A DNA stretch of 64,000 nucleotides from Eledone cirrhosa. Lineage: Eukaryota. Each line of letters opens with the position of its first letter. Position 1 is the stretch's first letter. A program made the translations under genes and the position numbers. Where the stretch lies: the NCBI GenBank assembly GCA_964016885.1, contig OZ024741.1, positions 404,426,001-404,490,000 on the forward strand, written 5' to 3'. Positions 2,283-63,640 of this stretch are shown here, in pieces. The notes beneath the pieces are model-generated. The model was not told the DNA's origin, made no database searches, and worked only from the letters and a program-made list of their open reading frames with translations.

Positions 2283-2484
2283 AACGAAGGAAATGTGGTA
2301 AGGAACCAGGTGGACCATAACGCACCAAAGTACTCAATACTTAGGGTAGTAGAGTGGGTAATAGGAACAAGTAAGACCCCAACGGCTGAGCTCAAGCCGT
2401 TTCGACGGCTAATTCTGTACTGGATTAGTACAGAATTAGCCATCGAAACGGCTTGAGCTCAGCCGTCGGGGTCTTACTTGTTCC
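2283..2484. mobile_element. Family B fold-back element in (TA)n (long left arm, short right arm)
   Basis: Inverted arms ~2362-2421 and ~2427-2484; contains GAAA-CGGCT-TGAGCTC-AGCCG-TC (HHR 3' half); both flanks are (TA)n. Confidence 0.85.
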
Positions 2485-2539
2485 TATATATATATATATA
2501 TATATATATATATATATATATATATATATATGTATATAT

Positions 2540-2790
2540 TGTTATATTTAGGGATGGTCATGTTACCAATATTGTCAATAAAAAACAAACAGACTATTTG
2601 ATTTTTACTTCAGCTTATTGTTAGTTGTTAATTAGTTCATCAAATGTTTTCGTCACACTCTGTATAGCCTCCTCAATGACAAGTTGTTTTCCTTTGTGCC
2701 TCTTTTTTTCTGGTTTTGTTTTCTTTACTCCATCTTGTCTTTCACATCTTGCAATAGAAATACATAAATGTATATATGAATTTATAGTCA
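2540..2790 (-). mobile_element. Diverged PLE 3'-end (pLTR) fragment related to family A, with decayed HHR
   Basis: TGTTATATTTAGGGATGGTCATGTTACCAAT resembles 8721-8750; the minus strand reads GTCA-TTGAGGAG...GTGTGAC-GAAA. Confidence 0.6.
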
Positions 2791-3634
2791 AATATATTGA
2801 TATATTGCAATGACTGTGTCTGTATGTGGATAGATAGAACAATTCAGAAGGAAAAAGAGAAAGTGGACGAGAGAGATAAAACGAGAGAGATATGGGGACC
2901 GGCGGAAATGGAAAACATTTTGTGATAAAATGGCGTATCTCGACCGTCCACTAAATCCCCATTTAAAATGGTGGTCGTCCTTTCTTCCCACTATCTACCT
3001 TAATTCATTTCTCTATCTTCTATCCTGTATTATCCTTGTTTCACCCCAGGACTATCACAGATCAGGGAACTTTTGGTTAATGTATTATTCGCTCATCGAG
3101 ATGGATCTTGTGGCAAATTTTGTGAAAGAGTGATGATGTTTCAAGACAAATATTTATACTCACTAGTTAGATGTATCATCATATTGAAGTGTCATTATTA
3201 GTGTCATATAAATATTTATATTTAAATGTTAATTCTATTTATTGTTTATAACTTCCTACGTCATATATATGTCTTAGATATTGTAAATAAAATGAAATGT
3301 TTAATAACCTCAATAGGACACTGAGGTGCCATCAAAGTCATAACCATTATCTGGTGTGTCGAGATCAGGTCAATTTTGTCAAGTGACGTCTTTCTCGGGT
3401 TATAGAGTACGATCAAAAATCGTAAGTATGACAAAAGAAATAAATACCTTAATATAGATTTGAAACTCTGCTGCTGAAATGGCTCAGCGATATCAAACTG
3501 TCATCCTGGTGTACTGAGCAAACTTTATAGTCTATGTGCGCAAGATTGGCCTGTTAGAAATAACGGTTGAATTCCCCATACTTTTAACCCCATTGTCTAA
3601 AAGAAATTGAAGGCCACGTTTGATAACGTACTTC

Positions 3635-3915
3635 TATATAACAAACAGATGTGGTGATGCCATCTGGAATACATCTATATTACAAACAGATGTGGTAATC
3701 CCTTCTGGAATGCTTCTATATAACAAACTGATGTGGTGATCTCCTCTGGAATACATATATATAACAAACAGATGTGGTGATCTTTTCTGGAATACTACTA
3801 TATAACAAACATATGTGGTAATCCCATCTGGAATACATCTATATAACAAACAGATGTGGTGATCCCATCTGGAATACTTCTATATAACCAACAGATGTGA
3901 TGATCCTTTCTAGAT
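3635..3915. repeat. 42-bp minisatellite, ~6.5 copies
   Basis: Unit TATATAACAAACAGATGTGGTGATCCCATCTGGAATAC(A/T)TC with an internal CAGATG/CATCTG hairpin. Confidence 0.9.
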
Positions 3916-61546: not shown

Positions 61547-61684
61547 TATATATATATATATATATATATATATATATATATATATATATATATATATATA
61601 TATATATATATATATATATATATATATATATATATATATATATATATATATATATATATATATATATATATATATATATATATA

Positions 61685-62245
61685 AGGGTAATTACAGCAG
61701 GTACAGTGAACTGTTTAAAACTTATTTTAAAACTTTTTCTTATTTGCTAAACCTTGATTATATATGTTCTGGCTCGTTAATTTATTAACCTGCAATAGAA
61801 CCACGTTGGCATACGGTTGGATAATACATGTGTCCCCTATATGTATTTTGTATATAGGGATACATACCTTATTATTATTAATCTCCCCTGGTCGAGATAA
61901 CATTTTTGTCGTTTTAACTGCTGCTATTTCCAGTGGCAGTACATTTACCTTTCCGCCTCTGCCTTCTATATTTACACACGGCACTAGACAGTATTGCTTC
62001 TTCATCATACTCTCTCATATCGGGAACAATTTTGAATGGCGTCAGTTCGTGATTTGAACTCGGGAATTTTATATTTTCCAAGCGAAAAGAACCCTCTGAC
62101 GAAAGTCTTCCTTTTCAATGGAATTCCGTATGGATTATCCATTTATTTCGAGACTTGAAACTGTAGGGTAAGGGTAATTACAGCAGATACAGTTAACTTT
62201 TTAAAATTTATTTAAAAACTTTTTCTTATTTGCTAAATCTTGATT
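61685..62245 (+). mobile_element. Non-coding retrozyme-like element: 486-nt unit + 75-nt direct repeat
   Basis: 61685-61759 is repeated at 62171-62245; one HHR whose cut site coincides with the repeat start; (TA)n flanks. Confidence 0.8.
62091..62175 (+). ncRNA. Type-I hammerhead ribozyme
   Basis: ACCCT-CTGACGA-AAGTCTT..GAGACTT-GAAA-CTGTAGGG-TA-AGGGT; predicted cut after 62170. Confidence 0.82.
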
Positions 62246-63019
62246 ATATATAAATATATATATATATATATATATATATATTATATATATATATATATAT
62301 GGCTAAAACAGCACGTGCTGTGACCAGCGGCGCCGAATGGCCCCCGACAAACTGGCGGTCAAGGTGATCAAGGTGTTATATATATATATATAGTAATAAT
62401 AATAAATTTGAAGACTAAAATCCGAAGAGGGCTCGATAAGGATAAATATATATCAAATATATAAGGACCGTAGAGCAAATATTTATTAAAATAACAGATT
62501 AAAGTTTAAGCAAAAATCGCTGCTTTCACCCTCAACAGGATCTTCTGAAACAAAAAAATCAATCTGTGAACGCAGAAGTAAATATTTCGAAAACGTTGCA
62601 ACCGAAGGAAGACAGGGAGACGATACTTTGGTTCGTGGAAACGTTCCCTGGCAAAGAACGAAACAACGAAGATAATACGTCATTATGTGGATCGAGGGAA
62701 CAATTACACATAAAGATAAAACCACGTTTATGGTATAACTGAAGTCTATGTAGGAAACCGAATGATTCTCGGCTTCAGAGTTAAGAATAATGTAAATAAA
62801 TTACAGAAGTAATTGAAATCAACAAAAATTAAATATATAAATTCACGCATCCATAAACGTACATACACATGCATACGCAAACACACCCGCCATGGGTATG
62901 CAAATACAAGCACGTACACAAAAAAAACGCACGCACATACAGAACACAAGCAACGCCTGTACCCGCACACATACGAATGTATACACCAAATACACATAGA
63001 AATATATATATATAAATAT

Positions 63020-63640
63020 ATACAATATGTTGAAAAGGTAACACACTAGAGAGAGATATACAGTGCGCTATCAATAAAACAGGGAAAAGCCACCGTGATA
63101 TTTTGCTCCTTATAACATTCTTTTCTCTCTCTCTGTTTGGTTGACCACACTTCTCTGAGTGGTTTTGGGCTGCCCTTTCTAGCAGCTCGTCCCTCAGAGG
63201 CCACTGGTTCACTGCCCTTAAACACGCTGTGACTTCTCTCTCCCACGTGTAGCTGGACAGTCACTTTTAAAATTCTCTTAGTGTTGTCTGAAATGTATAG
63301 CCTTACACACACTGAGGAACCGAGGTTATTCCATTTCTGTGAACAACTTACTGGCGAAACAGATCTCTTTGGATTTGTACGTGTGTTATATAGTTATAGA
63401 GGTATTTATTTACGCTTTAATTTATATTTATAATTATCGTGTCTATAGTCTACCTTTCATAGGTTATAGATTCCATACACTGGTGGTTTTTCCCTGTTTT
63501 ATTGATAGCGCACTGTATATCTCTCTCTAGTGTGTTACCTTTTCAACATATTGTATTTTAAAGAGCTCAGGATTTCTTCTCCTTTGAGCACATTATTTAC
63601 AGGGAATGGCGAGAGTCTATGGCTCCGTTAATTTATCGTG
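63020..63640. mobile_element. Family J inverted-end element nested in family H
   Basis: 75-bp inverted repeat 63020-63094 / 63482-63556, then an 84-nt tail. Confidence 0.85.
63305..63386 (+). ncRNA. Type-I hammerhead ribozyme with full stem III (family J)
   Basis: ACACACA-CTGAGGA-(stem II)-GAAA-CAGATCT-CTTT-GGATTTG-TA-CGTGTGT. Confidence 0.82.

Follow-up and report, generated by a model that had tools for sequence, protein, structure and literature searches.

In LINE-1 twin priming, both ends of a cut prime on one RNA, giving an inversion joined by microhomology; the second site is a chance complementarity, and the arms do not overlap. The insertions described here differ in that their sites are fixed and marked by structure and their arms overlap by up to kilobases. 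They are inverted insertions of Penelope-like element (PLE) type, analysed in a stretch of 64,000 nucleotides of the Eledone cirrhosa genome (assembly GCA_964016885.1, contig OZ024741.1, positions 404,426,001 to 404,490,000, forward strand; hereafter the window). For PLEs a one-sided tail of 30-40 bp has been described as general (Fig. 2 legend of PMC8557442; PMC3846280), and the origin of inverted, tailed insertions is called an open question in PMC8557442. An earlier note on the window had presented the asymmetry of long and short ends as new; this overstated its novelty, given the general one-sided tail (PMC8557442, PMC3846280) and two starts seen in vitro (PMC11167929).

The elements resemble the Hydra clade of Craig et al. 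2021, as characterized in passages of that paper (PMC8557442), in having RWx, DKT, a CxCx5C linker, no CCHH, a hammerhead-like motif, a (TA)n target, an inverted truncated copy and a tail that is often at one end only, but their tails, mostly 55-165 nt, exceed the 30-40 given there. Adineta Penelope elements (Arkhipova et al. 2013, PMC3846280) likewise show inverted pLTRs (pseudo-long terminal repeats), an optional 31-bp tail on one of them and microhomology joints, but have few copies and were explained by self-priming on an antisense template. For Poseidon PAc of Anolis (Frangieh et al. 2024, PMC11167929), two start sites of the reverse transcriptase (RT) bounding the tail were found in vitro; the purified protein nicks both strands and extends them, accepts uncleaved RNA and has been modelled as a dimer. 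Its internal starts bounding the tail, its action on both strands, its uncleaved RNA and its AT-rich target are points of likeness, but it belongs to another clade, its starts lie inside the open reading frame (ORF) in an AC-rich stem-loop, and the cited passages report neither a duplicated conserved element nor long/short coupling. Pairing counts do not occur in the passages of PMC8557442 drawn on here, and its main text contains neither 'hairpin' nor 'stem-loop', though its consensus sequences hold the motif described below. Asymmetry as such is known for PLEs; pairing counts and a duplicated hairpin were not found in literature searches, PMC4209133 and PMC13282606 being among the sources represented in part.

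Pairing of long and short ends

All 20 insertions listed in the earlier note were recovered at their positions by self-comparison and by a scan that took no account of family and looked for inverted arms bounded by (TA)n runs, and 19 of them show the design it described, with two head-to-head arms, one having a long and the other a short end. The sole exception, a C insertion at 13091-14492, has a short left end and an intermediate right end, its right arm stopping 70 nt short of the long end, within the first hairpin. The (TA)n setting ascribed to the insertions applies to most, although D at 45721 is flanked by (TG)n and H at 24414 by GAT/AAT-rich sequence. As had been noted, the ends stand apart: (TA)-anchored ends cluster mostly at two positions per family, but at 33-165 nt across families rather than the 55-130+ nt first given.

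Pairing was counted in the window together with six 200-kb blocks of the same genome (1.2 Mb; three arbitrary, two flanking the window and one picked near a C match), which provided 28 usable families for the pair and hairpin tables. Outward-facing arms were paired if at most 7 kb apart, and pairs with an internal (TA)6 run were counted separately. Without such a run, the raw table held 120 long/short, 6 long/long and 0 short/short pairs. Three long/long pairs of family V were rejected as an artefact, a (CT)n inside the V probe having made false pairs; V was removed, and X105, X115 and Q were left out too. After exclusion of V and 24 reference copies, the two-armed copies comprised 96 long/short, 3 long/long and 0 short/short (p = 5e-25 against 50%), or 89, 3 and 0 outside the window alone, which bears out the non-random end pairing expected in the earlier note. 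Outside V, 16 pairs contain an internal TA run (14 long/short, 2 short/short) and may combine separate events. One symmetric short/short A-like insert falls outside the pair table.

Core-only searches returned 21/21 long/short copies for C and 22/22 for B, both counted by eye; a core search for A in the same genome gave no candidates, A words being too common. Family H was sampled at 40 loci through its endonuclease (EN), namely the first 33 usable matches and 7 chosen for long open frames. Among these, 26 are two-armed (25 long/short, 1 short/short), and the remaining 14 end short in 10 cases and long in 3 (one with a 15-nt short arm), with 1 truncated. Single-arm copies outside V number 94 long and 80 short. 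The pairing rule applies to two-armed copies, and many copies show one detected arm; the 'strict' asymmetry amounts to ~97%, across at least two clades. An assembly artefact is ruled out by raw Illumina data: in two runs, 2267 and 2381 reads at 59653 contain the short end together with (TA)n, and strand-switch joints turn up at many positions.

Comparison of arms from the same H insertion revealed 100 shared minority variants against 13 expected, and in 17 of 21 insertions the two arms resemble each other more than other copies, indicating one source. At H junctions an overlap of at least 3 nt was found in 10/24 cases against 5.8% expected, with two junctions carrying extra letters excluded. 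The inner ends of arms accumulate either immediately upstream of the hammerhead core or at a short palindrome, as in B, in C at -256 and in H near -157 from the long end, which suggests RT stops or RNA 5' ends.

A bulged hairpin beside both end positions

The description of the insertions as 'many unrelated families' holds only in part, as B, C, D, H, K and X124 all appear to carry a Hydra-type protein. C (800 aa), H (709 aa), B and D display the Hydra-clade motifs defined in PMC8557442, and the bodies of K and X124 match Hydra-type proteins. C and H encode an RT plus an EN of GIY-YIG type at the C-terminus in a single ORF; C, H, B and D have RWT/RWR, differing in the third residue of RWK, and DKT for DKG. 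The CxCx5C linker, the lack of CCHH, CxxC and CxH around conserved E and N, and (TA)n insertion are likewise Hydra-type. Hammerhead-like cores were seen by eye in C, B and H (variant CAGAAGA) with no Rfam match at gathering score; an Rfam scan of the window gave no match, and Pfam gave none for the C, D and H proteins, whose EN is unscored. A and P have canonical CCHH endonucleases. The translation of A contains a CX2-5CxxC linker and CCHH in its C-terminal EN, with a GIY-YIG match (E 1.7e-4) just under cut-off, and its assignment as Neptune-like follows from the linker and CCHH motifs as compared with PMC8557442. Tails near the published 30-40 bp occur in N (33), U (36) and P (38), and those of the other 25 families measure 56-164 nt.

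Several of these families showed further features. The C protein has an Asn/Pro/Thr-rich insert of ~70 aa ahead of the linker (window 18360-18560), missing in H, which resembles the N-rich inserts in passages of PMC3846280. H is young and abundant, with 150 scored matches at >=95% and several intact 709-aa frames (among L261-L280). B forms head-to-tail arrays of at least 4 units with a period of ~3.53 kb (C1:437200344-437210965 and C1:91476611-91487266). X40 is a 591-bp tandem lacking an ORF but keeping both hairpins (block C2d 184663-186480; C2 about 404674600-404676500), and is likely a non-autonomous partner. Where the long end of O does not run into TA, a single fixed (GT)n-ATGCGC sequence follows in about half of the cases; it occurs at times as pairs that face each other at a distance of 0.5-4 kb, and another element may have captured an O end.

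In tandem copies both end positions fall inside the RNA, after the hammerhead and ahead of the start codon. In Hydra-clade families a bulged hairpin of the form RCUC-stem-2 nt-GAGY begins 0-12 nt, mostly 2-7 nt, 3' of each of them. The internal sites that the earlier note had read as family-specific TA/ATAT motifs do exist, but in the Hydra clade they are marked by this conserved, duplicated hairpin. Tails with no sequence relationship have in common an RCTC a few bases past the short site and a GAGY further on, and the full motif follows the short site in 19/28 families against 0.5 expected from shuffles. Since MAFFT aligns stems poorly, stem pairs were counted by script without a covariance model, and 28 hairpin items were parsed without use of the upper stem. 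With a 2-nt 3' bulge 71/84 upper-stem positions pair, compared with 45, 23, 20 and 38 for bulges of 0, 1, 3 and 4, totals that are lowered by parser mis-starts in C_L and D_L. The outer pair covaries (13 A-U, 10 G-C, 4 A-C and 1 G-U; p 0.0013), in counts uncorrected for kinship among families, and the upper stem has 8 G-U against 2 A-C, which favours the sense strand.

Read-through copies of C and H contain a second hairpin 6-7 nt past the long site. As predicted from these, a second hairpin was found in B (435 pattern matches, nearly all of the 100 listed having one continuation) and in D (43 matches, most with one continuation); that of X40 has an A-C outer mismatch like its first copy. The second hairpin lies 10-100 nt ahead of the start codon. 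At both sites, matching in young copies of H, B and C mostly breaks off 2-7 nt before RCTC, in a count that leaves 27 of 68 C short-site contexts unclassed. Both hairpins stay within the same few bases of an end although their spacing runs from 55 to 165 nt, and in D and Q2 it is long loops that lengthen the tail, the start lying as far from the stem as elsewhere. Minimum-energy folding applied to individual tails produced C hairpin 1 only in a longer stretch and did not yield the expected H pairs; a read-through copy of A was looked for and none identified. Rare third ends stop at CTA in the hairpin 5' strand, 11-13 nt beyond the usual site (L285, past the B long end; the L251 flank; window 14492). 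The hairpin of the eel LINE UnaL2 (passages of PMC1636434) is similarly a stem with an internal loop, needed there for mobilization, but it is single and upstream of the start at the RNA 3' end, whereas the two hairpins here each lie 3' of an internal start and are not copied into their own arm.

The motif extends to other genomes. From an alignment of 115 proteins, 78 metagenomic loci were fetched, of which 50 had an N-terminus and at least 90 nt upstream. The strict motif precedes the ORF in 21 of the 50, against 2.3 in shuffles, 3 antisense and 1-2 with other bulges. Between hammerhead and start codon, the 3' half of the hairpin occurs in two copies in 30/50 loci, one in 9 and none in 11, the antisense control giving 1, 9 and 40. 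The first upper pair in 62 distinct metagenomic hairpins is C-G in 43, U-A in 17 and mixed in 0, and spacing is 55-83 nt in 25/26 cases. The 3' ends were read by laying the 3' copy on the read-through copy; 13 rows ended at the contig end and 2 were uninformative, and by our own count a hairpin, in two cases a variant one, begins 0-8 nt beyond 11 of the 15 informative ends. Published consensus sequences of coral, sea cucumber and copepod, inspected by eye in the portion of PMC8557442 File S7 used here, also show it: Hydra-1_Ajap has two copies ahead of the start codon, Hydra-2_Ajap and Hydra-2_Amil one each at the 3' end, and Hydra-1_Crog a variant.

Insertions and other repeats in the window

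The C insertion at 14534..20136 consists of an inverted long arm on the left, a partial tandem with a full ORF, and a short end on the right, with (TA)n on both sides. Its ORF (16602..19004, + strand) encodes the predicted 800-aa Hydra-type protein, with RWT for RWK, DKT, RT YRDD, a CxCx5C linker and an EN without CCHH. Upstream of the short site lies a hammerhead-like motif (16320..16400, +; CTGATGA ... GAAA), recognized by eye and below the Rfam gathering score. Short ends halt 4 or 7 nt 5' of hairpin 1 (16440..16467, +; ACTC-CAG..CTG-TA-GAGT), and long ends 4 or 6 nt 5' of hairpin 2 in the read-through copy (16530..16550, +; GCTC..TT-GAGC). A further C insertion at 27305..27701 is long on the left and short on the right, with hairpin 1 at 27359-27386 (-), an arrangement also found in the B insertion at 2284..2484 (hairpin 1 at 2328-2355, -); additional B copies occupy 21357-21554, 28017-28196, 49921-50112 and 55144-55338.

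The D insertion (45721..48916) has a 127-nt tail and a hairpin 1 at 45764-45843 (-) whose upper part spans 67 nt, and a second D copy lies at 27017-27262. F (26602..27001) carries a 69-nt tail with hairpin 1 at 26633-26671 (-). Both G (48938..49579; hairpin 1 at 49472-49495, +) and J (63020..63640; hairpin 1 at 63565-63592, +) are short on the left and long on the right. In the H insertion at 59567..61545 (hairpin 1 at 59602-59650, -), the long arm contains a Hydra EN fragment (60661-61476, -) and the short arm is on the right; a second H copy is at 24414-24530. Two insertions first treated as orphans belong to families T (59315..59501; a 61-nt tail with hairpin, further T copies existing) and U (20196..20571; a 36-nt tail without the hairpin motif). 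The A insertion (8661..10666, 56-nt tail) keeps the pairing rule without an RCUC/GAGY hairpin and contains a C-terminal GIY-YIG fragment, interrupted by a stop (9133-10251), labelled Neptune-like from its linker and CCHH motifs; a second A copy spans 54566-55106.

Insertions of different families stand side by side with only (TA)n between them at 26465-27720, 48938-50112 and 59315-61545, and each insertion in (TA)n renews the target. The window also holds an ORF (662 aa) with an L1/Tx1-like RT and a tandem 3' duplicate at 42513-45602 and a further 3' fragment of an L1/Tx1-like element at 11080-11800, both labels being read from translation, and a plentiful 190-bp SINE-like repeat, often in tandem or facing pairs (199-591, 1681-2177, 35134-35563 and others).

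Origin of the two ends

In the Hydra clade each end lies just 5' of its own hairpin, and we consider it probable that two RTs docked on one RNA extend both ends of a cut in (TA)n. The observations behind this model are the pairing rule, the two hairpins, their fixed distance to the ends, covariation, variants shared between arms and microhomology at junctions; binding of protein to the hairpins, RT stoichiometry and priming are inferred. Two element proteins would bind the two hairpins on one uncleaved tandem RNA, a (TA)n 3' end would pair with the UA-rich patch 2-7 nt upstream of the stem, and each docked RT would extend one end of the cut. The downstream RT, at the long site, would displace the first cDNA or halt on meeting it, and the two cDNA ends would be joined through microhomology. 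The tail would then be the RNA between the two docking sites, so that its length would follow hairpin spacing. A and P would use another signal. The scheme of the earlier note, in which both cut ends prime at two fixed RNA starts and the cDNAs join by microhomology, is consistent with every test run. Dimer prediction for H residues 1-480, made without an alignment, gave no model (score 0.00) and is evidence neither way.

Several findings weigh against the docking model. The three remaining long/long pairs proved genuine on inspection, and the one short/short copy among the 26 two-armed H copies is an exception to the rule. The motif is missing or broken in 9/28 families (A, M, N, P, U, X12, X22, X123 and X40), of which A, M, N and P nevertheless conform to the pairing rule; in general, then, the rule does not depend on the hairpin. 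In O, hairpin 1 lies at 12 nt, and the 18 nt read past the long site contain no second one. Of the metagenomic loci, 20/50 have one hairpin copy (9) or none (11), and 4/15 informative 3' ends are located elsewhere; Hydra-1_Amil and Hydra-1_Obim show no clear hairpin by eye in the part of PMC8557442 File S7 inspected. Shared variants mean one source locus or later conversion, not one molecule. For Poseidon in vitro, the start site is the same on the two strands, and coupling within one target lies outside that assay as presented in PMC11167929.

Cutting of a longer cDNA or DNA intermediate by the GIY-YIG endonuclease at motif-marked sites, with long and short ends as two cuts, seems unlikely to us. 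Craig et al. ascribe the tail to EN-mediated resolution (PMC8557442), earlier work cited in PMC11167929 found the Drosophila tail required for EN recognition, and both sites are TA-rich, as is the target. Yet the Poseidon RT starts at both sites in vitro (PMC11167929), the motif is sense-strand specific, with G-U exceeding A-C, and each hairpin lies outside the arm whose end it sets. Still less probable is the use of two RNAs of one locus, one per cut end, with an asymmetric protein dimer imposing a long and a short start. It would account for arms that overlap by kilobases (e.g. L252, L258, L271) without strand displacement, and for the variants shared between arms, but it gives no reason why two equivalent hairpins are never used twice and leaves unexplained the long arms that halt at the short site. 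Among 121 arms of hairpin families, inner ends of long arms pile up there (15, against 4 in each flanking bin, with a bin picked post hoc), none do so among 28 arms of A, M, N and P, and the raw-read joints 59650/59681 and 59657/59719 represent a long arm stopping at the short site.

Near-identical arms and often palindromic junctions would fit a single cDNA primed at the long site that folds back and copies itself to the short site, along the lines of the self-priming proposed in PMC3846280. Such a fold-back needs the short arm to lie within the long arm. Of 53 short inserts, 20 have a short arm that extends further upstream than the long arm, 3 show the reverse and 30 have arms of equal reach, which excludes the simple form; the short arm holds the body in about half of H copies, and inserts whose long arm is tail only largely refute the idea, which we regard as extremely improbable. 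Equally hard to credit is that the small palindromes are units like miniature inverted-repeat transposable elements (MITEs), copied whole with inherited junctions. Junctions had been said to differ between copies; this is true of all 26 H junctions, but in B 21/30 long arms terminate in a cluster that lies 53-64 nt upstream of the short site and 12-22 nt ahead of the hammerhead GAAA, and one junction is common to 4/21 C loci. These B and C cases also count against the docking model and may reflect some whole-unit copying or a strong RT stop. Against MITE-like copying, B occurs as autonomous tandem copies of 3.5 kb that include a Hydra ORF, the ends are asymmetric, unlike terminal inverted repeats, and symmetric repeats around a fixed interior were not found. 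A role of the hairpins in translating or autoregulating the ORF close by, with no more than a coincidence of hairpins and ends, is very unlikely: the second copy does sit close before the start codon, but each hairpin stays the same few bases from an end over spacings of 55 to 165 nt.

Beyond the docking of two RTs in this genome, we give about even chances to a programmed twin priming of Hydra-clade PLEs, in which two telomerase-related RTs would be docked on a single RNA by a duplicated RNA element shared across phyla, GCUC-stem-UY-GAGCACU. The element would set each start a few bases upstream and so turn a double-strand cut into a two-armed insertion. Only one active PLE protein has been studied in vitro so far, and the duplicated hairpin, the 97% rule and a young H family with intact 709-aa copies make the mechanism testable by point and compensatory mutants. 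Small palindromes sitting in (TA)n could in many cases be wrongly classed as MITEs. The finding is relevant to the choice of an internal template start by telomerase-related RTs and, if programmed twin priming is true, GCUC-stem-UY-GAGCACU could be placed on any RNA to direct internal, two-ended target-primed insertion.

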